From the NCBI GenBank assembly GCA_043822065.1, contig JBDRCC010000002.1:1-49383 (forward strand): a DNA stretch of 49,383 nucleotides, in the 5' to 3' direction. Both the position numbers and the translations under genes were made by a program. This DNA is from an archaeon (lineage in GTDB: Archaea; Undinarchaeota; CAZHTU01; JBDRCC01). Below the pieces are notes generated by a model. The model did not search any database. It was not told where the DNA came from and was given only the letters and a program-made list of their open reading frames with translations. This document shows positions 9,705 to 28,989 of this stretch, piece after piece (the first letter of the stretch is position 1; the number at the start of each line of letters is the position of its first letter).

Positions 9705-10298
9705 ATGATAAAGATATTGGATGCATGTGTCATAATCCGGCTTGAAGGCATCAATGCGCTTGACAAGGTCCTGGACGCCTACCCAGGCAAGCTTTACGTC
9801 ACGGCTTCAGTCCACAGGGAGGTTTCAAAGGAGCCGGCAAAAAGCAAGCTTCAGGAAGCCATAGACGCAAAAAAGGTCCAGGTCTATACCTGCGACAAGA
9901 AGGATGTTGAGAGGACCTACTTCGAGCTCCACAAGAGGAACATAAAGATTCACTTTGACGACGTCCCAAATGTGGTCGCCGCGAGGCGGCTGGAGGCAGA
10001 GCTGGTGACTGACGATTTTGTCCTCTTCACCGCTGCCCAGATGTGGCACAACGAGCAGAATGTCAGCCTGTTCGTCCTGAACACCCGCGGGCTTCTGTTC
10101 GAGATGTTCCTGTCAAAGAAGATGGAGCTGATAGACTTCATCAAGGGGATACTGCAGATTTTCAGGTTCTCGGAGATACCAAACCTCTCCCATCAGCTTG
10201 AGAAAAGGATTCTGGACGTCAAGGATTTGCAGAGGATGTTTGGCGAGTATGAGAAGTACATGGTAAAGGCGATAGAGATAGCGGAGGGATACAGGTGA
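9705..10298 (+). CDS. PIN-domain protein (DUF3368/VapC-like) with helical C-terminal extension
   Basis: Acidic PIN motifs ILDACVII, VHREV, DDVPNVVAA, LVTDD, then NTRGLL. Confidence 0.75.
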   Translation: MIKILDACVIIRLEGINALDKVLDAYPGKLYVTASVHREVSKEPAKSKLQEAIDAKKVQVYTCDKKDVERTYFELHKRNIKIHFDDVPNVVAARRLEAELVTDDFVLFTAAQMWHNEQNVSLFVLNTRGLLFEMFLSKKMELIDFIKGILQIFRFSEIPNLSHQLEKRILDVKDLQRMFGEYEKYMVKAIEIAEGYR

Positions 10299-10753
10299 GC
10301 AAGACTGGGGGAAAGAAGAAGGACACTGTGGAGCGTTACAAGAAGGGCGAAATAAGCCTGCGGCAGGCAGCTAAGGAGGAGGAAAAGGACCTCCACGAGA
10401 TGATTGCGGTCTTCGAGGCGCGCGGATGCTTCTCAGCACAGGGCTTTGACGACGCGCTTGGCTTCGAGAAGAGGCAGTTTGACTATATAATAGGAAAGAT
10501 AGTGAACGCGATTGCCGAAAGGATAGGTATGGAGCGGCTCAAAAAGGCTGCTGAGGACCTCAAGGCGGACAAGCTGGACCTCAGGCAGGCAGCGGTCGGG
10601 CTTGGGCTCGACATGACAGACCTCGCACTGGTATTTGAGCACAGGGGGCTCATGACTGCCGACGAAATAAAGCACGAGCTGAAGCAGGTCGTGCACAAAA
10701 GGCGCGAGGAATTTTTTGAGCGGAAAAGGCGGCAGGAAAAAGTGGCAGAGTAG
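10295..10753 (+). CDS. UPF0175-like putative antitoxin with two tandem HTH-like units
   Basis: YKKGEISLRQAA...EMIAVFEARG and LKADKLDLRQAA...DLALVFEHRG; GTGA overlap with the PIN gene stop. Confidence 0.7.
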   Translation: MSKTGGKKKDTVERYKKGEISLRQAAKEEEKDLHEMIAVFEARGCFSAQGFDDALGFEKRQFDYIIGKIVNAIAERIGMERLKKAAEDLKADKLDLRQAAVGLGLDMTDLALVFEHRGLMTADEIKHELKQVVHKRREEFFERKRRQEKVAE

Positions 10754-10934: not shown

Positions 10935-10986
10935 TGCCGCAAATTGTTATTGCTGTAAATTATTGAACTGCCGTAAATTATTGAAG
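10935..10986. repeat. Three imperfect tandem repeats (16-18 bp)
   Basis: TGCCGCAAATTGTTAT / TGCTGTAAATTATTGAAC / TGCCGTAAATTATTGAAG. Confidence 0.8.
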
Positions 10987-10987
10987 C

Positions 10988-12643
10988 TTACAGCCGGTAT
11001 CCTACATAACGCTGGACTGCAGACAGCATAACTTGAGAAAGCGGCAGCCTTGGCATGTCGGCAACAACCCCGCCCCCGCGCGAGTATAGGGCATTGTATC
11101 GGAATCCAAAGTAGACTTCCGCAGTCATCCGTTTCAGAATCTCGTTGTATGTTTCACGCATCTCCTTGCATGGGTCGTCGTCGGAGATTTTCGTGTTGAT
11201 AAGGTCGAGATCCTCGAACATCTCGACTATGATGAATTCATTGGGTGCATTCTGATTAGGGAGGCCGAAAACAGCATCGAGCTCAACGTTGTGCGTTCGC
11301 TTGTATTTCTTTTCAAATTTCTCTAACGCCCCCTTGTACTCTTCGGCGTAATCATTGCAGACTTCTGCCAAGACCTCCGCAACCTGGTTGAGTGACGGGT
11401 ATGATTTCCTGTTGCCTGCGGCAGCCTCGAGGACGTCCTTGATTAGCTGGATTCTAGTAAGCCCAAGGATTGCCTTAAACTCGGTTGAACGATTTTTCAC
11501 GTCCTTCGCGCCAAAGTACCAGTTGAGAAGCCCGCTCGTTTCGAATCTGCCCTGGAGCTCCAAAAACAGGTTGTGGAACGACTCTATCTGGGCAAGGTGC
11601 TGGTCAGTTATGTTTAACAGCGTCATTTCTTTTTTAATGTCCTCTTTTAGCTGCCGGACATACAGCCGCTCTGAGAAGGGGGAGAGGCTCTTGAAGATAT
11701 GCTGCTTAAGCAGCTGTGCAAGCTTGTCCGAAGTCATGCCCTCCAGCTCCTCTTCGATATCAAGCGTTTTAAGGATTTCAATGACTTTGTCCCGGGCTTC
11801 CTTTTTTGTCCGTATCTGCTTCTCGACGTCCTTGAATACCTCTTCTAGTACGCTGAAGAGCTGCTCAAAATCATAGATGTTTATGCCTTTCGCCTTAAGC
11901 TTGAGTATTGATTTCGCAATGTGCTTCTGTATGTCATCCGGAGTATGCCTGTATTTGGCTTCCTCAGTCAGCTGGGAGTGTATAAGGGAACAGAGCTGGG
12001 GCATGGTAAAGTGCTTCAGCTTCGGAAGCTCCTTGATTAAGCCTTCAACAACGGAACCCATCTTGAATATGCCCCTAAACGCAGAGTACACTCCGACGTG
12101 GGGGTCAACAACCTCAAACTCCCGGAACATCCGCCTAACAACGAGCGGGTTGCTGTAGGGCTTGCTGCCAAGGCGCCCAGGTATTGCCTTGTACGCCCGC
12201 TCGACTTTTTCTGGGAGGAATTTTTTCTCGTACTGGTCTGCGAGCTTTTCTGGGTCAGTGTCCTTGTCTGAAAGCCGGACTAAGAGCCGCGCAAAGGAGC
12301 TATAGTCCTCCTGCGTAAGTGGATCCCGGATGCGTATGTCGTCTAAAATTTGATTTTCCAAGTCCCGCCTGTCAAGCTTGCCGCCGAACATTTTATTGGA
12401 TTCCATTGTGTCGTCCGGATAGTCGTCTTGCGTGAACTCGCCAGGTACAATCTGAGCCTTGTATTTGCCAGTAAGGTCGCTGGAGATTGAGTGCTTCGCA
12501 GCAGAGAACATCTTGTCGATTTCGCCCCGGATCTTGGCAACGTCCGCAACCTTCTTCATGTGCTCTACTGGAGGCGCAGCTATTTCGTCAATTTTTGAGC
12601 CGTGCCGCTCGTGGAGCAGGCCGCCAAGGACAGAGCTGCTCAT
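10988..12643 (-). CDS. Hypothetical alpha-helical protein (551 aa)
   Basis: Long ORF with protein-like composition; ATGA overlap with the upstream gene stop; no motif recognised. Confidence 0.85.
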   Translation of the reverse strand: MSSSVLGGLLHERHGSKIDEIAAPPVEHMKKVADVAKIRGEIDKMFSAAKHSISSDLTGKYKAQIVPGEFTQDDYPDDTMESNKMFGGKLDRRDLENQILDDIRIRDPLTQEDYSSFARLLVRLSDKDTDPEKLADQYEKKFLPEKVERAYKAIPGRLGSKPYSNPLVVRRMFREFEVVDPHVGVYSAFRGIFKMGSVVEGLIKELPKLKHFTMPQLCSLIHSQLTEEAKYRHTPDDIQKHIAKSILKLKAKGINIYDFEQLFSVLEEVFKDVEKQIRTKKEARDKVIEILKTLDIEEELEGMTSDKLAQLLKQHIFKSLSPFSERLYVRQLKEDIKKEMTLLNITDQHLAQIESFHNLFLELQGRFETSGLLNWYFGAKDVKNRSTEFKAILGLTRIQLIKDVLEAAAGNRKSYPSLNQVAEVLAEVCNDYAEEYKGALEKFEKKYKRTHNVELDAVFGLPNQNAPNEFIIVEMFEDLDLINTKISDDDPCKEMRETYNEILKRMTAEVYFGFRYNALYSRGGGVVADMPRLPLSQVMLSAVQRYVGYRL

Positions 12644-15600
12644 GCGCCAGCACCCCCTTCGGTGTAGCCACTGCTTTCGAGGAATCCCCAGATGCGGGTA
12701 AACCCAGAATCGATAAGGTCTGACTGTATAATGGCATCCCTGGAGGCAATACCCCCGGCTGTGGCAGAAATGTCGTCCGAGATAGCCTGGGACAGGCCTG
12801 CAAAGGACCCCCCAGTTTTCCCATACGCCCTAGCTGCCATCAGGAGGACTACGGCGTCGGTGTTTGGCCGCTGTATTATGGAGTGGGGCCATATCTCGTC
12901 TTTCTTTGCCTTGGAGTCCTTCGGGACTATTGCGCGGTTAGCCGAGTGTATGAATTCGTGCATGCGCATGGCGCGCTCTATTTCCTCTGGCTCGAATTTG
13001 TGCTTTGCACCATATAACTTGATGTAAAACTGCTGAACATCAACTGCCGTCTTAACAAGGTCATCAGTGCCAGTCCGGGTAACCTCGTGCAGGCGCTGTA
13101 TGCAGTGCGCCCATAGTTCGGAGAGGCGCTTATCGTTGGCATCAGCCATTTCCTCCCGCGCGCCGTTATAGCGCAGGGCAGGGCGCCGCTCCATGACGGA
13201 AAGCAGGCATATTGCGGCTATTATCTCATGCATCTCCTTAGGAGGGATGGATTTTATTTTTTCCTTGTTGTACGCCTCGTATTCCCTGAACATGCTCAAT
13301 GAGAGCTCTGGAACGTTGGATTTTGGGTAGAGGCCGAGATAGCCCATGTGCGGGAACTTGGACTTAGTAGCCCCATTCACCTCGTATGAGACATCGTCGC
13401 TTTCGTAGACAATGAGCGCTAGGTAGAGGGATGGTATCTTGGTCAGCCTTTCGCGGAGGAGCTCGAGCTTCGCAAGTATGGTAAAGCCGGCAACAAGCCG
13501 GGTGTATAGGTCAAGCGCCAATTCGAGGTTGTACCACAGCTCAGGGATATTGTCCTTTATCTCTACTGCGTGGCGCTTGAATTTGCCGTATGCGTGCTTG
13601 TCTGAAAGCTTGTTGTGCGCAGCTATCGTCCAGCCCTGGGTGTCGTACCACAGTATGTCCGGAAGGGACCTGAGCTTAATCCAGTCGCTGACAGACCATT
13701 TGCGGACATCCTTGGCATCAAAGCCGAACAGGTCCTTGAAAACAGACTCGAACAGAGCGGTCCACTGTTTTAGGTTGTCATGCAGCAGGTCGGCTAGGTC
13801 CGCCGCCTTCTCGGCATGCTCCCTGAAGTGCCACATCAGGAGCTTGACAAGCCCATTGGTCTTCTCGTCGGCGCGCTTTATCCCGCGGACGTCGCTTAGT
13901 ATGTAATGGGTGTAGGTTATCCGGCTGAGGTTATGCCAGTTGTAGACCATTTCCTGGTATTTTGAAAAGTCGTCCCCGTCTGACAGCTTTTCAATCTCCT
14001 CGTTGAGGTAGGTCAGGTCTTCGTTCGCCTTCATCAGTATGTCATCTATGGAAGCAGTCTCGCCGATTTTGTACATGTACTGCTCGGTTGAGACATATTT
14101 TTTCAGGGTAAGCTCTACTTCCGCGGACGTCTTCTTCAGCTGCTCCCTGTAGTCCTGCGGGCTGAGAACCTTCCTCCGGTCAGCCTCCATGAGGGTTATC
14201 CCAAGGACGTCCATAAGCCGCTCCGGCACGTCGAGGTCCTCCGCCCCGCGCTTCTCGATTGCCTGCTCGAAGTCGGCAGACATCGCCTTGGCAGTCTTGT
14301 GTATCTGGTGGGCGGCAGTCACCTTCCCCTTTGGAAGCTTGTACCAGATTATTTTGAGCTGGAGCCCCCTGGCCTTGGCCCTGTTCAGAAGGTAAAGCGG
14401 GACGTACCTGTCCTCCAAAAGGTCTTTCCGGTGCAGGTGGAACTCGGTGAGGAACTGCTCAAATTTCGCGCTGCGGTAGACCGTCTCGGTGACCTGCTTG
14501 TTTCCTTCGACGGCGGCGTCACCGTGGATGTCCACTAAGTCGTATACTTTTATTGTGGTCTTTATTTTTCTCTTTGTCCTAGACTTGCCAAGATCAAGCC
14601 CGTATGTTATACAATACTCGGTCAACTCAGCTGCGGCGTTGGAAACAAGCACATACCTGTCTTCCAAGACTATGTTCTCAAGTTTCGCACGGGAGATTAT
14701 GTTTTCAGCCTTGAGCTTTTTGGCGCGAGCTTTCACGTGTGCGGCGTACAGCTCATCGAAAATAATAAAGTCCATGGTTAGCTGCTTGCCCTCTTTCTTT
14801 GCAGCGGATTTATCTTTTGATTTTAATTTGCGCCTCTCAACAAAATTCTTGTTGAAGTATTTTCTCAGCGCTTTGACATCTTTAATGGACTCGTCAGGGC
14901 AGTAGGCTCCAATCGTGGTCTGATCTGCTTCGAGCCACCCCAGATTTTGGAGTATCACTAATTCAGTGTCTTTTCGTTCGCCAGTATCATCGGGAAGCCG
15001 GAGTATGGGATCCTTGTCTCTAAAATCTGAGTTGATGGAAACGCCAAAGTACGCGAGATAATCTGATTCGGTCAGCCAGAATATTTGGTCAAGAAGCTTT
15101 TTTTTAGCGGCTTTCTCGTCCTTCGCCTCTGCCTTCAGCTCCTTTTTTGTTTTATCATTGTACTGGCTAGCCAGCTGCTCAATATCGTATACTGCTGCCT
15201 CTTCTTTGGGGAGCGTGTACTCAGTCTGCTCAAGCACTACGTCCGAGCCGACTTTGTCCTTTAAGTCCTTGGCGTTTGGGCTTGTGGCGCGGAGGTACCT
15301 CTCCTCGAATAGGTCCTTTGCAGTTAGCCCCATGCCAGCGAGCCAGTCGTGATAGCCAGGAGCCTCGATTTTTTGGCTTGTAGTCTCTTCGACGCTTACT
15401 TTCTTCGCCCACGCCTTGTGCATGGCATCCAAGTCGTAAACATTGAACAGCTTCGTGGATTGCTTGCCGTCTTGACCAACCACCTTCCTCCGCTCAATGA
15501 ACTTTTTTATATTTACGCCTTGGTCTTCAACAGGCTTCAATATCGCTTTACGTTCGGCCGTAAGGTATTTCCCCTCAGAAAGCCCATCAACCGCAAGCCC

Positions 15601-16110
15601 AAGCTGGCTCAGGAACTCCGCGAAGTCAGGCCCGGTAGCCCCATAGGACTTCTTTACCTTACTCCACATCTCCATGACGTCGACTACAGGTATCCCTTCA
15701 ACAATGCGCTCAATCTTTCCAATTTCGCCCTCTTTTATCGCGCTAACCTGCTCGGACGCCTCCTTCCAGGAGTCCTTGTTGAAGAAATACTGCCAGTAGC
15801 TTGGCGGCCTGAGAAGGTACCAAAGGAACGCCACGGAGCGTACATTCAAGAGTGCGAGGTGCTGGTTCATGTCGGATATCTTCAGGAAGAAATTCTTGTA
15901 AAGCTTGTCAAGGCCCTTCCTGCCGACTTCCGCTGCGATTATCTTGTCGAGCTCAGTTATGTTGTAGAACAGGCCTATTGCCTTTTTGCGCTTCTCCTCA
16001 AGGTTAGCCTCATCCTTCTTGTCGTCTTTTTGCGCCTGGCTGGCATCTTCGGCTATAGTCGCTCCCTGGTCTTCGGCGCCGGCTATAACTGTGTCGTCCG
16101 CGTCAGCCAT
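12640..16110 (-). CDS. Large hypothetical protein (1156 aa) with degenerate internal repeats and C-terminal HExxH
   Basis: Long ORF; TAATG overlap with the upstream gene; recurrent VYDL..H and DL.E.RY motifs; HEFIH at aa 1051-1055. Confidence 0.88.
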   Translation of the reverse strand: MADADDTVIAGAEDQGATIAEDASQAQKDDKKDEANLEEKRKKAIGLFYNITELDKIIAAEVGRKGLDKLYKNFFLKISDMNQHLALLNVRSVAFLWYLLRPPSYWQYFFNKDSWKEASEQVSAIKEGEIGKIERIVEGIPVVDVMEMWSKVKKSYGATGPDFAEFLSQLGLAVDGLSEGKYLTAERKAILKPVEDQGVNIKKFIERRKVVGQDGKQSTKLFNVYDLDAMHKAWAKKVSVEETTSQKIEAPGYHDWLAGMGLTAKDLFEERYLRATSPNAKDLKDKVGSDVVLEQTEYTLPKEEAAVYDIEQLASQYNDKTKKELKAEAKDEKAAKKKLLDQIFWLTESDYLAYFGVSINSDFRDKDPILRLPDDTGERKDTELVILQNLGWLEADQTTIGAYCPDESIKDVKALRKYFNKNFVERRKLKSKDKSAAKKEGKQLTMDFIIFDELYAAHVKARAKKLKAENIISRAKLENIVLEDRYVLVSNAAAELTEYCITYGLDLGKSRTKRKIKTTIKVYDLVDIHGDAAVEGNKQVTETVYRSAKFEQFLTEFHLHRKDLLEDRYVPLYLLNRAKARGLQLKIIWYKLPKGKVTAAHQIHKTAKAMSADFEQAIEKRGAEDLDVPERLMDVLGITLMEADRRKVLSPQDYREQLKKTSAEVELTLKKYVSTEQYMYKIGETASIDDILMKANEDLTYLNEEIEKLSDGDDFSKYQEMVYNWHNLSRITYTHYILSDVRGIKRADEKTNGLVKLLMWHFREHAEKAADLADLLHDNLKQWTALFESVFKDLFGFDAKDVRKWSVSDWIKLRSLPDILWYDTQGWTIAAHNKLSDKHAYGKFKRHAVEIKDNIPELWYNLELALDLYTRLVAGFTILAKLELLRERLTKIPSLYLALIVYESDDVSYEVNGATKSKFPHMGYLGLYPKSNVPELSLSMFREYEAYNKEKIKSIPPKEMHEIIAAICLLSVMERRPALRYNGAREEMADANDKRLSELWAHCIQRLHEVTRTGTDDLVKTAVDVQQFYIKLYGAKHKFEPEEIERAMRMHEFIHSANRAIVPKDSKAKKDEIWPHSIIQRPNTDAVVLLMAARAYGKTGGSFAGLSQAISDDISATAGGIASRDAIIQSDLIDSGFTRIWGFLESSGYTEGGAGA

Positions 16111-16505
16111 TATTCCGGAACCTCCTCTAGGAACTCCTTTGCAATCGCAGGAAGATCAACTTCAAGATCCTCAGAGACTTTCGTCGCCTCCCTAAGCCCT
16201 TTGGATATCGCCTCAAGCTCGTTAAGGCAGAAGTAGCATGTGCGCAGGATATAGCTCGGGGGGACTTTTTTGCCCCACCACTCTGCAGTTTGTTCAAGCT
16301 TTTTACGAAGCCAGTCGACGGACTTGGCTGCAGTGCCGGTTGCCAGCTCTTTGCCGGATTCTACAAGGAATTCGTATATGTCGTCCGCGCCAGTTCCGTG
16401 GCCGTACCGGCGCACCCCGGTAGAGCGCAAAACGTAAGCAATCGCGATGTAGCCCCCGATGGTAACGACTGTGCCAGTAATGGCATATGCAAGATAGCTA
16501 GCCAT
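16110..16505 (-). CDS. Small N-terminally membrane-anchored hypothetical protein (131 aa)
   Basis: Hydrophobic N-terminus; TTATAAAC ~25 nt upstream of the ATG; stop coupled to the next start. Confidence 0.8.
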   Translation of the reverse strand: MASYLAYAITGTVVTIGGYIAIAYVLRSTGVRRYGHGTGADDIYEFLVESGKELATGTAAKSVDWLRKKLEQTAEWWGKKVPPSYILRTCYFCLNELEAISKGLREATKVSEDLEVDLPAIAKEFLEEVPE

Positions 16506-16556
16506 GGCTATAATATCGGTGGAACTAGTTTATAATGATTATTAACGCGGTTTGGG

Positions 16557-17936
16557 TCATTTTGGAGTGTATTTGGACTTCAGGCGGTCCTTGTGCGCGC
16601 GGATTTTCGCAATCTCGTCAATGAGTGCCACTTCAGCTTTCAGCTCGGCAGCCACAGAAGGCAGCTCTTTCATTGCCTTTTTGTGCTCCCTCGCCGCCTC
16701 ATCGAACTCCATCACCGCCTCCCTGACAACACCCTTGTTCAGGTCGTAGCGCATGCGCCGGAGAATCTTGGTAAGGCTGTCAATCTCGTCGCACTGCGCT
16801 ATGATGTCGTTGAGGAGCGCGACATTGCCCTTGGGGTCGGTTGGCTGGCTTTTAGCAAGTGCGTCCCTGGCTTGGACCAAATTGCCCTTTATGTCGCGGG
16901 CGAGGTATATTATTATGGACATCTCCTCCAGGCAGCAGAGGTGCACCAGCAGGGAGGCGCGCCTGGCTATTTCCTCCTTGGAGACGGCTACCCCCTTGTC
17001 TTTGAGCTGCTCTGCGATTTTCTCAGCCCACACGTGGTAAGCCAGCGCAATTATCTGGACAAAAAGGACAGTGACGAGGTTGTCAAGGTGCTTTGACACG
17101 CTTTCAATGGCGTCTTCCTCAAGTTTTTCAAGCGCAGCTGACTCCTTTGCATGCCTTTCACCGGCTATGAATTCATCAACATTCTTGAATAAGTCGTTGT
17201 CAGTAAGCAAGTTGTCCACCTTGCGGCAGGGCTTGTCCTTTAACATGCTCCGGCCGACCGCCTTACGCTCATCCCTTATTACCACCCTCAAGTTTGGCAG
17301 CTTAATGCCATACGTATCCGAGAGCTTCCTCTGGAGCTTTGGGAGGGCATAGAAAAGGTCAGTGCACACAAGCGCTATTGACTGCTCGATAAACCGCGCC
17401 TCGGCGCCGGTTGTCGATTTGAGGATTGGCTCCCTGCCCTCGATTTTCTCAATGGAGAGAAGGCTCGCGGACGACTCATCTTTTTCGTCCCCGGCCAGCA
17501 CCTCGACCGCATTCTCGATGCGCTTTTCGTTCTCCTCAAAGACGCGCCTTATCCTCTGCCGCAGGCGGCGGCGTATGTGTTCAGTCCGCTCCTCATAGAA
17601 AAGCCGCTCGAGCAGTAGGCTCAGCCGCGACACGAATGCTGCAGAGGACCCGACAAACTCCTCATACTTGCCGTCCTTGTGGTAGCCAAAACAGTTTATC
17701 GCGTCAGATATCAGGCAAGGCAGCATCCAGCCTTCTTCTCTCCGCTTCTGCCTCTGGACAAAGGTGCAGTGGTCACCGCTAAGATTGCTTAGGGCTTTGA
17801 GAGAGTCGCCGGCAAAGCCGCATATCAGCTCCACCCTGCCGCGCTGGTTGTACTTGTCGGAATGGACTGCGCTCTCAATCTTGCTTTTCAGGGCACCGAC
17901 GCCCCTCAGCTTCGCGGTCTGGACTGTTTCAACCAT
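16557..17936 (-). CDS. Hypothetical helical/coiled-coil protein (~459 aa)
   Basis: Long ORF. Start placed at ATG 17936 (MVETVQ), after SD-like GGTGAGG and overlapping the upstream stop; the track begins at 17954. Confidence 0.83.
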   Translation of the reverse strand: MVETVQTAKLRGVGALKSKIESAVHSDKYNQRGRVELICGFAGDSLKALSNLSGDHCTFVQRQKRREEGWMLPCLISDAINCFGYHKDGKYEEFVGSSAAFVSRLSLLLERLFYEERTEHIRRRLRQRIRRVFEENEKRIENAVEVLAGDEKDESSASLLSIEKIEGREPILKSTTGAEARFIEQSIALVCTDLFYALPKLQRKLSDTYGIKLPNLRVVIRDERKAVGRSMLKDKPCRKVDNLLTDNDLFKNVDEFIAGERHAKESAALEKLEEDAIESVSKHLDNLVTVLFVQIIALAYHVWAEKIAEQLKDKGVAVSKEEIARRASLLVHLCCLEEMSIIIYLARDIKGNLVQARDALAKSQPTDPKGNVALLNDIIAQCDEIDSLTKILRRMRYDLNKGVVREAVMEFDEAAREHKKAMKELPSVAAELKAEVALIDEIAKIRAHKDRLKSKYTPK

Positions 17937-19023
17937 TTGCCTCACCACCGGCAAGCGCGCGGTCAGACGCGCCCAGGATACTTACCTCTGACTTGATGAG
18001 CTCGAGCATGTTCAGGAAGGAGTGGTAGTAGAACTTGAGAAAAACGGTGTCCCTCACCAGCCCGTACGCTAGGTTAAGCGCGAGCTTTTTGTCAACGTCG
18101 GAAAACATCCCGGAAAACTCCCTGAATTCGTCAGGCACGTTTTTCTTTTTCTCATATATTGATGCGACAAGCCAGTCGCAGTAGGACTTCTTCATGGATT
18201 GCACGTATTTTATTGAGAGCTCAACGTCGTTATGGAAGTACTGCATAACCTGCGGGTGGACCCTGCCAAAATATTCAGTCAGGTAGCGCTTCAAGGCGCC
18301 TGCGCTCTCCCCTTCTGCAGAGGCGGCGACTGCATGGTTTATCCGCTGAACAGTATCACCCTGCCGCGCCTTCAGCTTCTTGCACTTGTCGGTTAGCGAC
18401 ACCAGGTTGGCGTCTACCTCCTTGAGGAGCTCCCTGTGCATTTTCGCAGTCTCGCCTTTTTCGAACTCGCTCTTTGACGGCATGAGGGAGAACATACTGG
18501 AGGATGTTTTCTTCCTCTCTTCGACCTGGTCTATCAGGCTGCTGATTACGCCCTTGTCGCTGGCGAGGATGTTTATGAAATCAAGGCGCCGGTAGCCGCG
18601 CTCCGAGTCCGACTTGAGGTAGTCGGCTATCTGCTTGTTCTGCTTCATGAGAATGCCAAGCTCATTCTTCCGCCCCACCTTGTCCGCTGGGTTGTCCAGA
18701 AAAACCGGGGCGCCGCGCTGGATTATGTCAACTTCCTTGGTAAGGTCGTCCTTCACCGCCTTCTCGAAGTCGCCCCCTATGGCTTTGTAGACATCCTTGA
18801 GCTCAGTTTCAATCCCAGTAAGCTCCTTCAGGAAAGCAGGGCCGTATTTTTCCGCCTCGTCAGACCGCAGGTTATCCGGGAGGTCCTTTTCCTTTTTGGG
18901 GTCCGGATTAATCCTGTCGCGGCTTGGGCTGTCTCCCTTGATGCGCTCAGCTACGCGGCGGAAGAAACCGATAATCCTCTGGACGAACCCTATTATGGCG
19001 GACACGAAATTCGGAAGTGCCAT
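17929..19023 (-). CDS. Hypothetical helical protein (364 aa) with N-terminal amphipathic helix
   Basis: MALPNFVSAIIGFVQRIIGFFRRVAERIKG; TATA-like TTTAATATA upstream on the minus strand. Confidence 0.85.
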   Translation of the reverse strand: MALPNFVSAIIGFVQRIIGFFRRVAERIKGDSPSRDRINPDPKKEKDLPDNLRSDEAEKYGPAFLKELTGIETELKDVYKAIGGDFEKAVKDDLTKEVDIIQRGAPVFLDNPADKVGRKNELGILMKQNKQIADYLKSDSERGYRRLDFINILASDKGVISSLIDQVEERKKTSSSMFSLMPSKSEFEKGETAKMHRELLKEVDANLVSLTDKCKKLKARQGDTVQRINHAVAASAEGESAGALKRYLTEYFGRVHPQVMQYFHNDVELSIKYVQSMKKSYCDWLVASIYEKKKNVPDEFREFSGMFSDVDKKLALNLAYGLVRDTVFLKFYYHSFLNMLELIKSEVSILGASDRALAGGEANG

Positions 19024-19103
19024 ACTTATTAGTTATTGGGCGATACAGTATATTAAACTTGAGGTAAAAAGGTTTTAATAGTGGAAGGGGGATAATTATA
19101 GCC

Positions 19104-20597
19104 ATGGACCCAATAACCGTCGGGCTATTGATTGCTGTGTTTGGTGGAGTCGCTTACGTAGTAAGCCGGGGCGGCGGAGTGAAGAAAGAGGTCACCCAGA
19201 TAGGCGGCGCGGAGACCGCAAAGGATTTTTTTAATCTTCTCGGAAAGGCAGCGGGCAAAGGGAAGGACCGCGCCTTGAAAGCGGCTGACAAAGTGGGTGA
19301 AAAGCTTTCGCACGGCACGATAAAAGAGTATATCGGCTCCATAACCGAGAGGCTCGGTGACGCGGAGAAGCGGATAGGCGCCTTCGGCAAAGAGCTGAAG
19401 ATGGAGGGGGAAATAACCAAAGAAGAAACAGAGGAAGAGGCTAAAGTAGCTGAAAACGAGCCGGACAAGGCAGAGAAGGAAACAAAAAAGACTGCAAAGA
19501 TTTTTTCATCCCTCCGAGAAAAGAACGAGAAAGAGATATTCAACGTTGTTGAAGATATCGTATTCTTTGCCGCGATAATTGACCCGTTCAGGGTTAAGAA
19601 AGAAAAGGATTTTGATGTGGAGGAATGGTCGACTATATGTACGGACGGGACGCCAGACGACGACATAGAGGCGGTAAGGAACTCCCTGGTAGATATCCTG
19701 TCCCTGCCGCTGGCAAACACGGATGCAGTCATGAATGCGGCAACCGCCGTGCCACTTGAGAAAGGGGCACGGGTGCTGAAGGAGACTGCCACACTAGAGG
19801 AATGGGCTTCCAATGTAGTGGGCACGTTTAAGAGCGAACATGGGGCAACCCCTAACCTGGAGCCGATAGCAAAGGAGATGCACAAGCTCAGGAAGGAATA
19901 CCACGGCTGGCTGAAGGAGATGCGGCACCACGCAAAAGAGGCAGACGGGTGGCTGAAGAAGTGGGAGGGCATATTCCTGAAGTATTTCAAGGAGGAGGCG
20001 GAGAAAAAGGCGGAAGGCCTCGAAAAGGCGCGCCTCGGTAAGAGGGCAGCGCAATGGGGAAGCGTCGCACTCGCGAAGAGGAAGCTTGGCAAGAACCCCT
20101 CTGAACTGGTTGCGATAACCAATGCGGCATGCGAGTCCATGAAGGAGATTATCACGTTTTACAACTCCCTTGGCATGTTCTATGAGGAGCTTAAGGCGAA
20201 TAAGGACCTCATAAACAAGCTGGCTGAAATTGAGATTGAGCTGCTGAGGCGGGAAGGTGAAGAGGAAACCGCAAAGAAAGCGGAAGGGGAGAGCCCGAAA
20301 GAGGCGGAGAAGGACACCAAGAAGGAGCAGAAGGAGGAAGCTGCCGAAACCGTTGAAGAAGAAACCGTTGAGGACCAAGAACAAAAGGAAAGAGATGAGA
20401 TTGCAAGAAGGCAGCAAGAGGCCCAAAACAAGAAAAAGGCGGAAAGACAAATAAGAAAAAAGAGTAGAAAGAAAGCAGGGAAAGGCGGCACATCCAAAAA
20501 GGAAGGGGGCGAAAACGCAATACAGGCGCCGCCGCCCGAAAAAACTGCCCCGGCTGCGGCAAGCACGCCGAGCCCGCCTGCGCCAAGCGGACCATAA
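19104..20597 (+). CDS. Membrane-anchored coiled-coil hypothetical protein (497 aa)
   Basis: N-terminal TM (ITVGLLIAVFGGVAYVV), E/K-rich helices, K-rich and P/A-rich tail; TTTTAATA upstream. Confidence 0.85.
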   Translation: MDPITVGLLIAVFGGVAYVVSRGGGVKKEVTQIGGAETAKDFFNLLGKAAGKGKDRALKAADKVGEKLSHGTIKEYIGSITERLGDAEKRIGAFGKELKMEGEITKEETEEEAKVAENEPDKAEKETKKTAKIFSSLREKNEKEIFNVVEDIVFFAAIIDPFRVKKEKDFDVEEWSTICTDGTPDDDIEAVRNSLVDILSLPLANTDAVMNAATAVPLEKGARVLKETATLEEWASNVVGTFKSEHGATPNLEPIAKEMHKLRKEYHGWLKEMRHHAKEADGWLKKWEGIFLKYFKEEAEKKAEGLEKARLGKRAAQWGSVALAKRKLGKNPSELVAITNAACESMKEIITFYNSLGMFYEELKANKDLINKLAEIEIELLRREGEEETAKKAEGESPKEAEKDTKKEQKEEAAETVEEETVEDQEQKERDEIARRQQEAQNKKKAERQIRKKSRKKAGKGGTSKKEGGENAIQAPPPEKTAPAAASTPSPPAPSGP

Positions 20598-20650
20598 CCT
20601 TAGCCCACCAGAGGATAGCTTTAAATAATTTCTTGCGTTTTAGATTACCC

Positions 20651-21547
20651 ATGCGCAAACAGAGGATTGCTTTTTGCACTATAGTCCTGCTTTTAGCGTT
20701 CAGCATGCCTGCCCTTGCCGCCGCGCAGGAGGTCAAGGTCGGCACTTACATACTCAACATAGGCGAGTACGACATCGAGAAGGGCGCCTACAAGGCGGAC
20801 TTCTACCTGTGGTTCAAATGGGACGGGGAGCTGTCACCGGAGGGCTTCGAGCTGATGAACGGGGACAGGTCAAGCTCCACCAAGATAATTGATGAGCCAG
20901 GCTATCTTTTTTACAGGATACGGGCGAACCTGCACGAAAACCCTGACCTGCACCTCTACCCGAAGGACACCCAGAGCCTCACAATAAAGATAGAGGACAG
21001 CATGTACAACTCAAAACAGCTGGTCTACGTGCCGGATTATGAGGAGATTGGAATGAGCGGCGAAGTCGAAATCAGGAACTGGGACATAGTAGACGCAGAA
21101 GCGCGTGTAAAAGAGAACTACTACCCAAACTGGAAGGAGAACTACAGCAGGTACACTTATGAGGTTAGGATGGGCAGGCCGTCGTCTGCCTACTGGAGGA
21201 TTATACTCCCAATACTCTTCGTCGCAATAACCGCGTGGGCATGCTTCCTTTTGCCGGTCCACAAGATTGAGGCAAAGCTGGCGCTTGGGGGGACAGCCCT
21301 TCTGTCTGCGGTGGTCCTGCACATACTGATAATAGAGTCAATACCGCCGATAGGGTACCTCACCCTTGCAGACAGGTACATAATAGCGCTCTACTCGCTC
21401 CTTGTGTTTTCCCTGGTGTCTATGATAATGGTTGAGAGGCACCTCCTCAAGGAGAGGCACAAGGAAGCCGCAAGGGACAACCTGCGGTTTGCGCTCGGGG
21501 CGCTCGCAGTGCCGGCAGTGATGTTTTTCCTCCTCACCCTCTTATAA
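20651..21547 (+). CDS. Pentameric ligand-gated ion channel (prokaryotic Pro-loop receptor, GLIC/ELIC-like)
   Basis: Signal peptide; VKVGTYILNI..YD...GAYKADFYLWFKW; Pro-loop DLHLYPKDTQSL; WDI; pre-M1 R, M1 RIILP, M2-M3 loop IPPIGYLTLAD; four TM helices. Confidence 0.88.
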   Translation: MRKQRIAFCTIVLLLAFSMPALAAAQEVKVGTYILNIGEYDIEKGAYKADFYLWFKWDGELSPEGFELMNGDRSSSTKIIDEPGYLFYRIRANLHENPDLHLYPKDTQSLTIKIEDSMYNSKQLVYVPDYEEIGMSGEVEIRNWDIVDAEARVKENYYPNWKENYSRYTYEVRMGRPSSAYWRIILPILFVAITAWACFLLPVHKIEAKLALGGTALLSAVVLHILIIESIPPIGYLTLADRYIIALYSLLVFSLVSMIMVERHLLKERHKEAARDNLRFALGALAVPAVMFFLLTLL

Positions 21548-24137: not shown

Positions 24138-24998
24138 ATGAAAGACAAGATTCTGGAGTATGTCAAATCACACGGGCCATGCACTCCAGTAGAGATAGCT
24201 CAGAAGCTCAGCCTCAACTCAATGATTGCCTCCGCAGTGACTGCAGACCTTATAGGCAAGGGCATATTGAAGAGCCGGAAGAATGTCGGCAGCCAGAACC
24301 TCTATTTCACCCCCTCACAGGCGGACAAGGCGAGGATAAGGATATTCCAGAGCATGGAGGAGCGGGAGCAGCGTTTCCTTAAGGAGCTCCAGAACAAGAA
24401 GGTCATTTTGGAGGGCGATTACCAGAATAGGCTGATTGAGGAGTTCTCAGATTTCCTGGAAGAGTTTGACTTCGGGGACAAGAGGGCATGGAAGTGGTTC
24501 GAGATTAGCTCATCCGAGGCGCTTGATGCGCTAAAGAGGCGGCTTGGGAAATCGGACAAGCCGAAATCCGAGGCAAAGGCGGAAAAGCTGGCGCCTTCGG
24601 CCAGCCTGCCGAAGCCGGTCAAGCTGCCGCTGCCAAAGCCGGCACAGCGGGCAGCCAAGATAATCGGCGGAGAAAGCTATGCTGATATTGTTGTCGAATG
24701 GCTTGAGTCCCAGGGGGCGAAGGTTGGGGAGGTAGAGGAAATAAAGAAGGATAAATACTGGAGGTTCACGGCGTCCGTGCCGACGCCGCTTGGGAGCCAG
24801 AAGTACCTGGTCATCGTGATAAAGGAAACCAAGAGGGAGGCTGGGGCGAAGGACATAAAAGCCGCCTTCGACAGCGCGGTCAAGGACAAGCTCCCGGTCA
24901 TAATGGTGTCGTCAACGGGGTTTGCGAAGTCTGCCGAGAAATCCTGGAGCAAGGACTACAGGAACATGATAAGCCTCGTGGACGCCAGGACCCTCTGA
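24138..24998 (+). CDS. Hypothetical protein: N-terminal winged HTH plus C-terminal Mrr/restriction-endonuclease-like fold
   Basis: KILEYVKSHGPCTPVEIAQKL...VGSQNLYF; C-terminal GAKDI...VIMVSSTGFAKSA. Start at ATG 24138. Confidence 0.7.
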   Translation: MKDKILEYVKSHGPCTPVEIAQKLSLNSMIASAVTADLIGKGILKSRKNVGSQNLYFTPSQADKARIRIFQSMEEREQRFLKELQNKKVILEGDYQNRLIEEFSDFLEEFDFGDKRAWKWFEISSSEALDALKRRLGKSDKPKSEAKAEKLAPSASLPKPVKLPLPKPAQRAAKIIGGESYADIVVEWLESQGAKVGEVEEIKKDKYWRFTASVPTPLGSQKYLVIVIKETKREAGAKDIKAAFDSAVKDKLPVIMVSSTGFAKSAEKSWSKDYRNMISLVDARTL

Positions 24999-25036
24999 AT
25001 AATAAGATATTTAAGCACTCCGCCCTTTGTGTTTTT

Positions 25037-25597
25037 ATGGCAGAGGACAGCTTTGCAAAAAAAATTTATAGCCTCGTTGTAGTAAACACGCTCGACAAAG
25101 CGCACGATAGGTTCGACATCCACGGGCTTGTTGCCGGCACGATAGTAAGCACGTTCGGCTTCCTTATCTGCCTCTTGGCAAGCTATGTGTTCGCGTATAA
25201 TAATTTCCTCCAGGCGTCCGGGCTGGTTGCGGAACTCGGCGTTTTCGCCTACCTGTCCATAGTCCTGCACCACTATTTTGAGTTCAAGCGGGAGCTTTGG
25301 AAAACCCTCAAAAGGCCGGTGAGGAAGGCAGAGAACATTTTGCTCATAGCCGGAACCGCCATGCTGATGGTCATTGTCTACATATTCCTGCTGAACTCCG
25401 CAATCGGCGTTATCCGGTTCTACCGTATTGTCGCAGGTACGGGAAAGCTTTTTGTCTTCATCAGGTCCATGCCTGGCCTGCTCGTGCTCGCGCTTCCGCT
25501 GTTCACCTGGAAGCAGCTGTGCAAGTTCACCCCAGTGGATGAGTTTGTAAAATGGGTGATGGCAGGGTATCGTGGAGGAAAAGATGGCGGGAAATGA
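25037..25597 (+). CDS. Hypothetical multi-pass membrane protein
   Basis: About four hydrophobic segments; TATA-like ATTTAAG upstream. Confidence 0.75.
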   Translation: MAEDSFAKKIYSLVVVNTLDKAHDRFDIHGLVAGTIVSTFGFLICLLASYVFAYNNFLQASGLVAELGVFAYLSIVLHHYFEFKRELWKTLKRPVRKAENILLIAGTAMLMVIVYIFLLNSAIGVIRFYRIVAGTGKLFVFIRSMPGLLVLALPLFTWKQLCKFTPVDEFVKWVMAGYRGGKDGGK

Positions 25598-25865
25598 GAC
25601 CACCACCGAGCCAGGCCCGATATCCGGGGCATTAAACACCATAGACAAGCTGCTTAACGTATTTGACAACATAGTCGCTGCGATAGTATGGGTAAACGCC
25701 CAGTTCGCATCCCTTGGGCTCACGCAGCCGCAGATTTACGCAATACTAGGCATAATCGCGCTTGTGGCATTCCTCTTCTCCCTCAGGTTCTTTGAGATAA
25801 TTTCCAAGGTGCTTATAGTCGGGCTGATACTGTTTGTGGTAGTAAGCATTTTAGGGATAGTCTGA
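25584..25865 (+). CDS. Small membrane protein
   Basis: GGAGG before ATG 25584; hydrophobic C-terminal helices; TGATG coupling to the next gene. Confidence 0.72.
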   Translation: MAGNETTTEPGPISGALNTIDKLLNVFDNIVAAIVWVNAQFASLGLTQPQIYAILGIIALVAFLFSLRFFEIISKVLIVGLILFVVVSILGIV

Positions 25866-26410
25866 TGCCAGTATATCAGCCAAGAGAGGACTCGTTCCTT
25901 ATTTTCAACAGCATGAGGATACCTGCTGGCGCAGATGTCTTGGACATGGGAACCGGCACTGGCCTCCTGGCGATTGAGGCAGCGCGAAGGGCGAGACGGG
26001 TTGTCGCGGCTGACAAGTCGCATGAGGCAGTAGAGTACACCAAGAGCGCCTGCAGGCGGATGAACGCCAGAAATATAGAAGTAATCCAGAGCGACCTCTT
26101 TGAGAAGGTGGCTGGGCAGTTTGACGTCATACTGTTCAACCCGCCGTACTTGCCCGCGGACGCAGACCCGCGGTCCAACGACGCGGCATGGACCGGAGGC
26201 GAGACCGGGCAGGAGGTAATCTGGAGGTTTGCCAGGGATGCGCGGGAGCACCTTAAGGAGAGCGGCGCGATATTCCTGGTCGTCAGCAGCCACACCGGGA
26301 TAGACGAGACCGCCAAGATGCTCAAGGACATGAAGTATGCAGTAAGCGCCGTGGCAGAGGAGCGCTTCAGCTTTGAGAAGCTGGTGCTGCTAGAGCTGCG
26401 GGCAGTATAG
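25865..26410 (+). CDS. mtq2: HemK2/Mtq2-type N5-glutamine methyltransferase
   Basis: VYQPREDSFL, VLDMGTGTG, SDLF, FDVILFNPPYLP, WTGGETG. Confidence 0.88.
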   Translation: MPVYQPREDSFLIFNSMRIPAGADVLDMGTGTGLLAIEAARRARRVVAADKSHEAVEYTKSACRRMNARNIEVIQSDLFEKVAGQFDVILFNPPYLPADADPRSNDAAWTGGETGQEVIWRFARDAREHLKESGAIFLVVSSHTGIDETAKMLKDMKYAVSAVAEERFSFEKLVLLELRAV

Positions 26411-26412
26411 GC

Positions 26413-27561
26413 TTAGGATGGGCACTTTGAGACTTCGACGCTGGTGTATGCTGTCTTTTTCATGCCGTCGTGGGCAACCTCAACTATTGCCCTTGCCGGA
26501 TAGCCGCAGAGGCTTCTCACGCAGGCAGCATCGTAATAGTCGCGGTAGAACTCTAAGTAGTATGTGTTTTTGCCGGTAGTTTTTGAGCGAAGCAGGTTCC
26601 CGACCTTGCACATCTTGGTCGCGTCGCTCTGGATGTAGACTGTCCTGCCGAACTCCACCTTGAACGGCTCGCCAGCGAAGGAGCCGGCGTAGTTTAGCCC
26701 GCTGTACCTGTCCCCGCCGCTCGACGCGGCCTTGGTGTCAAGGCCCTGGTAGAGGCCGAGCTCGAAGGCATTGTCCAGCTGCATGACGGTCTCGTAGTAG
26801 GTCTTGTAGTCGTATATCATCGGGACCTGCTTTGCAACCGTGTAGTTTATGATACTAAGCTGGAAGTCGTCCTCGCTCTCGAAGGCATGAAGCTTTATCT
26901 TGGAGCAGATTGTCCGCGGCTTGCCGTTTGCAAGGTAGGTCAGCTTGCTTTCAATTGGGAATTCCCCTTCCTCGTTTGGGACTAACCGCCATATAAGATA
27001 GACATAGTCAGAGTCATAGACATCGTCGAGGTCCTTTGGGTCTATGACTTGGGAGGAGGTAATCGCATACTTGCTGCTGCTTTTGAGCTCGGCAGATATA
27101 TGCGTGAGCTTGTCCTTGTAGTTCGTCCGCCTTAGGCTGAGGCGCATCTCAAGGGGGCCGCCGACGTTGTACTCGTCATAGAACTCGCCGTAGTTGTACT
27201 GCTTTAGGTCGTACATGTGGATTTCAAAGCCGAGCTTCTCGAGCTCATTGAGGTTTGTAGGCTCGCACCATGTGCCTAAGTCTGCAGGCGGCTCTTCTGG
27301 CACGTCTGCAGGCGGCTCAGATGATGGCACGTCATCCGGAAGCGCATCGTCGGCAACATTAACATCGGTTCCATCGTCCGGCAGCTGGCTGTCCTGGCCA
27401 GTCGAGGGGGGTGAGGGCTCGTCCCGGTCACATATTGAGTTTGAGTTCTGGTCAAGGCAGCAGTCATAGGCTACCCGGATATACGGTGGACTGCATACTG
27501 GCGAGGATATGCAGCCAGCTACAACTACTACAAAAAGCACTGCAAAAAGCGTTATTTTCAT
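26413..27561 (-). CDS. Putative lipoprotein / surface protein with Cys-rich N-terminal motif
   Basis: MKITLFAVLFVVVVAGC lipobox-like; CSPPYI...CCLDQNSNSICDRDE; D/P-rich linker; beta-rich C-terminal domains. Start at ATG 27561. Confidence 0.8.
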   Translation of the reverse strand: MKITLFAVLFVVVVAGCISSPVCSPPYIRVAYDCCLDQNSNSICDRDEPSPPSTGQDSQLPDDGTDVNVADDALPDDVPSSEPPADVPEEPPADLGTWCEPTNLNELEKLGFEIHMYDLKQYNYGEFYDEYNVGGPLEMRLSLRRTNYKDKLTHISAELKSSSKYAITSSQVIDPKDLDDVYDSDYVYLIWRLVPNEEGEFPIESKLTYLANGKPRTICSKIKLHAFESEDDFQLSIINYTVAKQVPMIYDYKTYYETVMQLDNAFELGLYQGLDTKAASSGGDRYSGLNYAGSFAGEPFKVEFGRTVYIQSDATKMCKVGNLLRSKTTGKNTYYLEFYRDYYDAACVRSLCGYPARAIVEVAHDGMKKTAYTSVEVSKCPS

Positions 27562-27647
27562 TGATGCACCCCGGAACACCCGAGATATCTGCGGGCAGAT
27601 TTATATAATTTAGCTATGCCAGTTTTTGGACTCCTGGGTGGGCGGCT

Positions 27648-27940: not shown

Positions 27941-28516
27941 CTAAAGGACGTCACAGCGCCGGACTGCAATAATCTTTATGGGGTAGATTTTTGAGGCGCG
28001 CTTTGTTATCTTTGCCTGAATCTTGCCAAAGACTATGTCCTGTATCAGCTGGCCGCCGGAGACCTCTTTCGCAGCCTGCTGCATCTCCTCGTCGATTATC
28101 CTGCTTATCGCCTTCTTCTGCTTTACGTCTATCCGCTTTGAAACTGTCGTAATGACCTTGACCTTCAGCTTCTTGTCGCCGAAAGGGACAGTGGAGAACT
28201 GCATGAACTTGTCGCCCCTGCGCCGTACCATCGAGCGCTCGTAGTCCCGGGTTATCTCATGGCGGACGAAGTCAGTTGAACAGACATCCCCCTTGACTTC
28301 GAGAATCCTGAAAAAGAGCTTGTGCCTCTGCTTCTTGAAGTCGCGCACGTCTCCGCTGAGGTCAGAAAGGGTCGTCTCAATTATCCTGCCGACGAGGAGC
28401 TTCGGGTCAGAAGCGATGGTCTGGCCGATGTACGAGCCGCCAAAGGCATCTGGTGCCTTGACGTCGTACCACTGCTTAAGCTTCCATGGGTCCTTGACGG
28501 TCTTTGCTGTTGCCAT
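27941..28516 (-). CDS. rps3ae: 30S ribosomal protein S3Ae (eS1)
   Basis: KDPWKLKQWYDVKAP..FG, LVGRIIETTLSDLSGD, KLFFRI, DYERSMVRR, KIYPI. Confidence 0.95.
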   Translation of the reverse strand: MATAKTVKDPWKLKQWYDVKAPDAFGGSYIGQTIASDPKLLVGRIIETTLSDLSGDVRDFKKQRHKLFFRILEVKGDVCSTDFVRHEITRDYERSMVRRRGDKFMQFSTVPFGDKKLKVKVITTVSKRIDVKQKKAISRIIDEEMQQAAKEVSGGQLIQDIVFGKIQAKITKRASKIYPIKIIAVRRCDVL

Positions 28517-28989
28517 TATTCGATGAGCAGTTTAGACTTGGACAGGTCGTATTCCCAGCTCTTTGGGAGCCTGCCGGTTGATTTGTAGTATTTTACAATG
28601 CGCCGTATCTTCGATTCAGTAAGCTGAAGGCCCCTGCGGGAGACATTGTCCTTTTTGTTTGTCGAGAGGTGCTGTGAAACAACGGTAGCCCGCCTGATCA
28701 GGTTTACGAGGTCCTCCGGCGTTTCAGGGGAGATGCCCTCTGACTTGAGGACTGCGTGAAGCTTATTCCCGGTCGCCCTCTTGACCGACGGTATCCCGTG
28801 CTTGTCGCGCAGCTCAATCCCGATTTTGCTTGGGCTGTAGCCTTTTTTGTAGAGGTCTGCAGCAGTTTTCTGGATGTCAAGCTTCGCGCCCTCGGAAGCG
28901 AGCGGAGTCTTTTTTGCAGACTTGGCAGTGGGCTTTTTCGCCTTCGCTTCTTTTTTTGCTTCGGTTTTTGCCTCTTTTTTTGCAGCCAT
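28516..28989 (-). CDS. rps15: 30S ribosomal protein S15 (uS15)
   Basis: GYSPSKIGIELRDKHGIPSVK, PEDLVNLIRRA, HL..NKKD..SRRGLQLTESKIRRIVKYYK...LP..W.Y. Confidence 0.95.
   Translation of the reverse strand: MAAKKEAKTEAKKEAKAKKPTAKSAKKTPLASEGAKLDIQKTAADLYKKGYSPSKIGIELRDKHGIPSVKRATGNKLHAVLKSEGISPETPEDLVNLIRRATVVSQHLSTNKKDNVSRRGLQLTESKIRRIVKYYKSTGRLPKSWEYDLSKSKLLIE

Follow-up and report, generated by a model that had tools for sequence, protein, structure and literature searches.

A block of six orphan genes in an undinarchaeotal genome whose products may assemble at the cytoplasmic face of the membrane

Six adjacent genes occupy 9.6 kb (positions 10988 to 20597) of contig JBDRCC010000002.1 (C2), from an uncultured archaeon of the Undinarchaeota, and encode proteins that are far from every known family. 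In the reading that we propose, and to which we give a probability of about 35%, the encoded proteins would come together in one assembly or several at the membrane's cytoplasmic face. The proteins g131 and g497 would serve as single-pass anchors and, together with an amphipathic helix of g364, would retain at the membrane soluble partners that are large, charged and helical for the most part, and g1156, with five tandem modules of 68-136 amino acids (aa), would act as a multivalent scaffold or hub. The job of such an assembly is a guess, for which membrane shaping, the organisation of a contact site and the tethering of nucleic acid are candidates. The contig, 49,383 bp long and analysed whole (hereafter the window), belongs to an archaeal genome bin of 1,026,769 bp in 22 contigs, which is 82% complete and 0.05% contaminated. 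The genes of the block and the two spacers between its units are:

10988-12643, minus strand: g551, 551 aa, last gene of unit 2
12640-16110, minus strand: g1156, 1156 aa, unit 2
16110-16505, minus strand: g131, 131 aa, first gene of unit 2
16557-17954, minus strand: g465, 465 aa from TTG at 17954 or 459 aa from ATG at 17936
17929-19023, minus strand: g364, 364 aa, first gene of unit 1
19104-20597, plus strand: g497, 497 aa, divergent single-gene unit 3
16506-16556, minus strand: spacer between g465 and g131, 51 nucleotides (nt), with the A/T-rich TATA-like stretch TTAATAATCATTATAAA
19024-19103, no strand assigned: divergent intergenic region between g364 and g497, 80 nt, with TATA-like A/T-rich stretches in both directions

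Organisation and coding potential of the block

All six open reading frames (ORFs) lie where an earlier note on this DNA, made from the letters alone, had placed them, and the couplings which it described can be read directly in the sequence. The genes g364 and g465 overlap by 8 nt (ATGGTTGA), and GGTGAGG precedes the ATG at 17936, the start of the 459-aa form, which is the form present in the protein collection. The junction of g131 and g1156 is TAATG, with GGAGG upstream of g1156, and that of g1156 and g551 is the 4-nt overlap ATGA, with GGGGGTG upstream of g551. Each internal gene (g465, g1156 and g551) has a Shine-Dalgarno-like motif 6-14 nt upstream, and the first genes of the units, g364, g131 and g497, have A/T-rich, TATA-like upstream regions in place of this motif. 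Because the Shine-Dalgarno motifs are confined to the internal genes, the layout is consistent with three transcription units of archaeal type, namely g364-g465, g131-g1156-g551 and, in the divergent direction, g497. The spacer at 16506-16556 may contain an internal promoter for unit 2, and the TATA-like stretches of 19024-19103 suggest that this region acts as a promoter region; the five minus-strand genes may also be transcribed together by read-through. The gene overlaps suggest co-translation and to a stoichiometric pairing of the products. A scan for sigma-70 promoters and terminators was dropped, being uninformative for an archaeon and giving counts near those of shuffled sequences.

Only one feature connects two of the units directly. 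This is a 13-mer, ATTATAGCCATGG, which occurs exactly twice when both strands of the 1.03-Mb genome are considered, both times at a unit-first gene whose product has a transmembrane anchor:

19095-19107, plus strand: copy 1 of the 13-mer, including the g497 start codon
16502-16514, minus strand: copy 2 of the 13-mer, including the g131 start codon

The DNA around the two copies cannot be aligned. With this 13-mer, g131 and g497 may have in common an element of initiation or regulation, through which they would be co-regulated.

The six ORFs are real, compositionally native genes. Their in-frame codon log-odds are 0.16-0.28, within the distribution of the genome (0.228 +/- 0.091), and the five alternative frames of the same genes score from -0.98 to +0.03; their synonymous-codon score, GC content and GC content at third codon positions (GC3) fall at genome percentiles 10-70. 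Codon usage which is both frame-specific and native argues for real genes and makes a recent import unlikely. Were the frames chance ORFs or pseudogenes, the failure to detect relatives would be accounted for, but this explanation is highly improbable in view of open frames of 364-1156 codons in a genome of 52% GC, the codon usage just described, the Shine-Dalgarno motifs, the start/stop overlaps and the existence of a diverged, full-length paralogue of g465, to which we return below.

Search for relatives

None of the six proteins has a match at the curated cut-offs of Pfam or NCBIfam, and nothing significant was found for them in PADLOC, in PHROGs or among the sequences of the Protein Data Bank (PDB), in agreement with the earlier remark that no family could be recognised. 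Among 5.8 billion clustered proteins, g1156, g465 and g364 matched only themselves, as did g551 among 1.84 billion representatives, searched with phmmer in filter-only mode. For g1156 there was also no match in 40 relatives, in metagenome contigs, in viral contigs (IMG/VR) or in the PDB. The searches with g131 and g497 covered 20 related genomes each and one close-relative scan each: the 20 relatives yielded for g497 a single row (13.5 bits, E 0.009), and metagenome contigs none, and for g131 no match was obtained in its 20 relatives or in genome contigs. All the contig scans (metagenome, genome and viral) were pattern-seeded. Feature searches of the ESM Atlas returned no relatives, and a literature search found no paper concerning these six proteins, as expected for proteins without relatives. 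The description of the block as undescribed is thus borne out, with four proteins finding only themselves among 1.8-5.8 billion and the other two, searched less deeply, also finding nothing. The lineage itself is thinly sampled, with no other genome of the family and only two of the order in the collection searched.

The sole block protein with a paralogue is g465. The paralogue, encoded on another contig of the same genome (C19, 27968-29413, minus strand), has 481 aa and is diverged but full-length (phmmer E 4e-13; BLASTP 23% identity over 387 aa, E 2e-16; Smith-Waterman Z 25.9). A profile built from the two proteins found no match in genome contigs, 40 relatives, viral contigs (IMG/VR) or the PDB. 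A 500-aa orphan with no Pfam match lies 11 nt upstream of the paralogue; the idea that it is a relative of g364 or of any other block protein was not supported by similarity. When the six proteins and these two were compared in all 28 pairs, Z was at most 3.4 in all but the paralogue pair. Both C19 orphans (27968-30927, minus strand) carry Pro/Ala/Ser/Thr-rich tails as in g497, and the pair is flanked by a fructose-1,6-bisphosphatase gene and a fused primase gene.

Membrane segments and topology

According to the earlier note, the first gene of each unit begins with a membrane-targeting segment, and both hydropathy and hydrophobic moment agree with this. Within the block, hydrophobicity of transmembrane grade is found at the N-termini of g131 and g497 only: g131 has one N-terminal transmembrane helix at about residues 5-26 (Kyte-Doolittle 19-residue maximum 1.78) and g497 one at about residues 1-24 (maximum 2.02), followed by a highly charged K/E-rich region and a tail rich in Pro, Ala, Ser and Thr. 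Both proteins have no basic residues ahead of the helix and clusters of Arg/Lys behind it, which in g131 are rich in Arg. Under the positive-inside rule, these flanking charges predict that the bulk of both proteins is cytoplasmic, so that the C-terminal ~100 aa of g131 and most of g497 would face the cell interior.

The third protein of this kind, g364, starts with MALPNFVSAIIGFVQRIIGFFRRVAERIKG and has an amphipathic helix at about residues 3-28, after which the sequence is charged and poor in Pro and Gly. Its hydrophobic moment peaks for the whole protein at residues 10-27 (0.70, 18-residue window), as would be expected for an amphipathic helix that binds the membrane surface, and no hydrophobic peak of transmembrane grade is present in it. 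No hydrophobic segment was found in g551. Two internal helices of g465 are of moderate hydrophobicity (Kyte-Doolittle 1.7); since their counterparts in the paralogue carry charges, we read them as buried rather than transmembrane. A common origin of the three anchor proteins was also considered and rejected, the pairwise Z being 0.5, 0.7 and 2.3 once the transmembrane segments were removed.

At the level of the sequence the term membrane-tethered is supported, with two N-terminal single-pass anchors and one amphipathic N-terminal helix. The description of the proteins as helical fares less well: a low Pro/Gly content, a high Glu/Lys content and a low-confidence model of g1156 agree with it, whereas the repeats of g1156 are predicted to be alpha/beta. 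As for the roles which had been offered as examples (host contact, effector delivery and defence), nothing points to them: PADLOC gives no match, secretion signals are absent and the proteins are predicted to be cytoplasmic for the most part. The block differs in this from anti-phage defence systems, none of the protein models of PADLOC-DB 2.0 being matched (best rows E 0.024, with 12.4 bits, and E 0.2).

Tandem repeats and structure models of g1156

The largest protein of the block is made of an acidic N-terminus, five tandem repeats and a C-terminal region of about 540 aa, which may be helical according to a low-confidence model. Two features of it need coordinates:

14275-15639, minus strand: repeat region of g1156, residues 158-612, degenerate tandem units R1-R5 of 68-136 aa
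12946-12960, minus strand: HEFIH (an HExxH motif), residues 1051-1055 of g1156

The units are recognised by the motifs F..FL...GL...L.E.RY and VYD[LI]..[LM], and their similarity is supported by fragment BLAST (residues 202-246 and 421-474 share 43% identity, E 4e-6) and by shuffle tests, in which Z reached 8.2 for R1-R3, 5.6 for R4-R5, 5.1 for R2-R3, 3.8 for R2-R5 and 2.7 for a fifth pair, against at most 1.08 in the controls. A sixth unit was rejected (Z at most 1.1).

For the whole of g1156, an AlphaFold2 model built without an alignment has a mean predicted local distance difference test (pLDDT) score of 34.3, and the HEFIH motif lies in it within a predicted helix (residues 1041-1060). 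Zincin metallopeptidases combine an HExxH motif in a helix with a third zinc ligand and a recognisable peptidase fold or family; in g1156 the motif lies in a helix of a low-confidence model, and no peptidase family was matched in Pfam or NCBIfam, even by its C-terminal 546 aa scanned alone. By estimate, the chance of finding one HExxH across six proteins is about 10%, and the motif could be due to chance.

The repeat unit was modelled from a six-row internal repeat alignment, and the model (pLDDT 61.9; predicted TM-score, pTM, 0.48) has the order alpha-beta-beta-alpha-beta-beta-alpha. In a Foldseek search of the PDB, nothing reached E<=0.001. The first-ranked structure, TcpK of plasmid pCW3 (PDB 5vfx), a winged helix-turn-helix (wHTH) protein bound to oriT, spans nearly the entire model, but with 10% identity, E 0.11 and a TM-score of 0.44 on a model of pLDDT 62 the likeness is not significant, and it was not confirmed by the VIA scan. 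Rows under TcpK comprised MarR/AbfR, TFIIE and SarA, none of them significant. The VIA scan, which is independent of Foldseek, had a best Z of 3.7 and no wHTH near the top, and the search of BFVD had a best E of 0.077, none reaching E<=0.001, with many Bro-N, antirepressor and helix-turn-helix (HTH) names in its lower rows.

These rows hint that the repeat unit might be a small DNA-binding alpha/beta module. They bring in a sub-case of the cytoplasmic-face assembly in which it would tether nucleic acid or the nucleoid to the membrane, the five repeats of g1156 serving as DNA-binding alpha/beta or winged-helix-like modules and the anchors keeping chromosomal, plasmid or incoming DNA at the membrane. 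Small DNA-binding domains are over-represented among the top fold rows of both the PDB and BFVD, none of which is significant, and the motif F..FL...GL...L.E.RY resembles a helix-turn-helix by eye. We give this sub-case a slim chance, since no match reached E<=0.001 in either Foldseek search, the best VIA Z was 3.7, and the pLDDT 62 model has strands where the HTH helices should be. An assignment of the repeats to HTH of the MerR/excisionase type, made by eye, was rejected for this last reason and because the units scanned singly in Pfam match no HTH family.

A sequence lead to a virion protein

Scanned singly against Pfam, R1 gave 12.3 bits (E 0.12) with PF20828 (ATV_ORF273), a family of Acidianus two-tailed virus (ATV), below its cut-off of 27 bits; the match spans profile positions 75-154 of 246, and R2-R5 score nothing. 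In a direct comparison, R1 (g1156 residues 162-247) and residues 98-182 of ORF273 are 26% identical across 86 aa, with a single gap. The BLASTP E of 9e-5 is a figure for that single comparison. By Smith-Waterman the pair has a Z of 7.5, and none of 2000 shuffles scored as high; ORF273 ranks best among 68 ATV ORFs against R1. The choice of this pair out of 24,736 families was post hoc. Against the other units, ORF273 had a Z of 2.8 for R2 and at most 0.4 for R3, R4 and R5, an hhalign comparison of the repeat profile with ORF273 gave a probability of 0.06, and a search for the ORF273 family across the genome found nothing. In the VIA scan the ORF273 structure (PDB 4art) was at rank 38 of 48,161 chains (Z 2.7), and the ranges of ORF273 covered by the structural and the sequence alignments are shifted along the chain.

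Like g1156, ORF273 is an orphan of archaeal origin, and R1 holds both repeat signatures (DF.EFL and N[VI]YD[LI]D) within the alignment. The structural paper on ORF273 (PDB 4art/4ats) describes a single compact domain with about 250 ordered residues, a new fold and an unknown function; this domain forms tetramers, unlike the repeat array of g1156 (PMC3466262). We consider ORF273 to be the closest sequence lead, as distinct from family membership, and, its function being unknown, no mechanism could be transferred to g1156 even if the relation were true.

Synteny break and alternative origins of the block

The gene order upstream of the block was compared with that of the closest genome of the same order in the collection, G001. 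It keeps four of the window's genes in order, namely DRG, MscS, h197 and h152 (57, 47, 55 and 37% identity), and h152 is followed there by two small membrane ORFs, a 183-aa ORF and three tandem pilin-like genes. The block is absent from this place and starts at a synteny break relative to G001. In G001 (contig C37, 139-1802), the block's position is occupied by three tandem paralogues with, by eye, class III (pilin-like) signals. In the window, h197 and h152 are coupled genes of 197 and 152 aa (9705-10753, plus strand) with no Pfam match, which adjoin the block; by eye, h197 is PIN-like and h152 has two HTH-like repeats, and they may form a toxin-antitoxin pair.

Archaeal virus genes are typically without relatives, and the block could be what is left, after full amelioration, of an archaeal virus or plasmid that had integrated, with the g1156 repeat distantly related to the ATV virion protein. 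The position of the block at the synteny break, beside the putative pair of a PIN-like toxin and a two-HTH antitoxin conserved in G001, would suit this explanation, and so would the alignment of R1 with ORF273, the 12.3 bits of PF20828 and the Z of 2.7 of 4art. We nevertheless consider it improbable. No integrase, capsid, terminase or replication gene was found in the block with Pfam, NCBIfam or PHROGs, no tRNA was found in the window, and the block is flanked by no att-like repeats beyond matches of chance size; PHROGs gave no match, nor did IMG/VR for the queries g1156 and the g465 profile, and codon usage and GC3 are native. The block therefore differs from an integrated virus or mobile element in its hallmark genes, att repeats, tRNA target, composition and viral matches alike. 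As for the ORF273 signal, it is below the cut-off, post hoc, confined to one of five units and negative by hhalign and family search. A unit of 90 aa, moreover, would match only a fragment of the ~250-residue ORF273 fold (PMC3466262).

A more serious alternative, in our opinion only a little less probable than the proposed assembly, is a passive island of orphans, that is, six unrelated, fast-evolving or newly arisen genes which came to lie at a plastic locus and have no common function; some of the proteins may in that case be associated with the membrane independently of each other. To judge how unusual the block is, orphans were counted on another contig (C7), taking the first 150 of 164 called ORFs of at least 100 aa and counting as no-Pfam those without a match at E<=1e-5. 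As many as 54 of the 150 are no-Pfam, clustered in runs of 3-5, and this frequency speaks for such an island, as does the fact that the block begins exactly where synteny with G001 stops. Size argues the other way: orphans of this genome are seldom as long as the proteins of the block, for only 3 of the 54 no-Pfam ORFs of C7 reach 400 aa (and 4 of its 29 ORFs of at least 350 aa are no-Pfam). The longest no-Pfam run of C7 has 5 ORFs, 1522 aa and about 4.9 kb, compared with 6 ORFs, 3164 aa and 9.6 kb for the block, in which five proteins have at least 364 aa; the block is the longest no-Pfam coding run in the ~186 kb surveyed (the window and ~137 kb of C7). Two further observations speak against unrelated genes, namely the tight translational coupling inside two units, which would be unexpected for them, and the 13-mer ATTATAGCCATGG, unique in the genome to the start sites of two units.

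Two regions of C7 were noted in passing. The second-largest orphan run lies at about 120,944-125,794, with five no-Pfam ORFs of 195, 121, 388, 654 and 164 aa. At about 28,074-31,516, five small no-Pfam ORFs are followed by a match to a 'putative phage metallopeptidase' (PF18894, E 7e-20), and this region may be a provirus or a mobile remnant.

Weighing the proposed assembly

Several results count against an assembly at the membrane and, in part, in favour of the passive island. Other orphans of the window behave as the block does: all three further no-Pfam genes tried (388, 778 and 255 aa) were without a real match in 16 genomes of the phylum, their sole row having 19.6 bits and E 1.9e-4. Orphans thus being common in the genome, the adjacency of those in the block could be passive. 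The six proteins are not detectably related to each other. The partner of the g465 paralogue is unlike g364, so that a fixed pair of a g364-type and a g465-type protein is not conserved even within this genome. The structure models of the block proteins are too poor to show anything (for g551, the Atlas model has a pLDDT of 0.37 and a best TM-score of 0.28 by query and 0.34 by row). Finally, a complex prediction for g364 and g465, run without controls, scored 0.00 and counts neither way.

In view of the coupled genes, the membrane segments, the shared 13-mer, the tandem repeats of g1156 and the concentration of long orphans, the assembly at the cytoplasmic face is nonetheless the reading that we prefer, and the block proteins would in it be physically associated. 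A more specific version would see in the block an undescribed cytoplasmic-face machine of one DPANN lineage, in which three tethers would recruit g1156 so that its modules could bind some ligand of repeated form, be it DNA, a filament or a component derived from the host. The whole would organise a contact site of the episymbiont or its division site, with ATTATAGCCATGG as a dedicated regulatory element; we regard this version as a long shot.

Comparison with known systems and significance

One likeness in architecture concerns g364. ESCRT-III/Snf7 and PspA/Vipp1 are membrane binders with an N-terminal amphipathic helix and a helical body, and Atg17-like proteins are coiled-coil scaffolds; in g364, as in these membrane binders, an amphipathic helix at the N-terminus leads into a long body, which is charged and probably helical. 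The highest-scoring Pfam row for g364 is ATG17_like (PF04108; 20.3 bits, E 4.4e-4, residues 160-315), below the cut-off of 43. Unlike ESCRT-III and PspA, however, g364 has no match to Snf7 or PspA_IM30 at E<=1 in Pfam, and unlike ESCRT-III systems the block contains no ATPase of the Vps4/CdvC type according to Pfam and NCBIfam. The likeness of g364 to ESCRT-III, PspA and Atg17 would accordingly be one of architecture only.

DPANN archaea have tiny genomes, and the expense of about 1% of such a genome (9.6 kb) on six large proteins without relatives suggests a function important to the lineage. Meheust et al. (2022) state that hypothetical proteins predominate in DPANN genomes and that the lineage-specific hypothetical families often carry transmembrane helices or signal peptides, from which membrane or extracellular roles were suggested (PMC9258230). 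The block fits the membrane-associated part of this picture and differs from them in two ways: the families there are near-ubiquitous in their lineage, whereas the block comes from a single genome, and the bulk of the block proteins is predicted to be cytoplasmic, not extracellular (PMC9258230). A cryo-tomography study of a DPANN co-culture describes the molecular basis of attachment and of cytoplasmic bridging as poorly understood (PMC11329633). If it is true that the products assemble at the membrane, they would represent a type of membrane scaffold new to archaea, which cryo-tomography and proteomics could take as a concrete target. For the present the block is of limited practical value, since one genome without relatives and without a usable structure model gives computation no hold on the function.

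Neighbouring genes and minor observations

The earlier statement that almost all flanking genes are identifiable is roughly right, 26 of the 32 flanking ORFs having a Pfam match at E<=1e-3 and 22 of the 32 one over the curated cut-off. Among them are genes for PurL/PurQ, TYW3, a DRG GTPase, MscS, the ribosomal proteins S3Ae and S15, a RIO kinase, an MCM-like ATPase and a giant Ig-repeat protein. No Rfam match was found in the window. The further orphans of the window are:

24956-27579 and 32251-34587, minus strand: ORFs of 255, 185 and 388 aa with no Pfam match and one of 778 aa with a sub-threshold Pfam row

The 185-aa orphan has one tblastn match, of 35% identity, in a G011 locus.

On the downstream side of the minus-strand genes, a near-perfect tandem 17-mer (TGCTGTAAATTATTGAA / TGCCGTAAATTATTGAA) lies at 10951-10985, just after the g551 stop codon, and is followed by a GC-rich hairpin (GGCCGGT...ACCGGCC) in the convergent intergenic region. 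On the other side of the block, the neighbour of g497 (20633-21547, plus strand) encodes a 304-aa protein for which Pfam gives matches to the two halves of the pentameric ligand-gated ion channel family, a family uncommon in archaea, with 32.2 and 27.3 bits, just over the cut-offs. At the far end of the window (40908-49383, minus strand), a very long ORF is cut off by the end of the contig after at least 2809 aa. Its product contains bacterial Ig-like domains (Big_13, Big_3_3) and NEW3 domains and is probably a surface adhesin.

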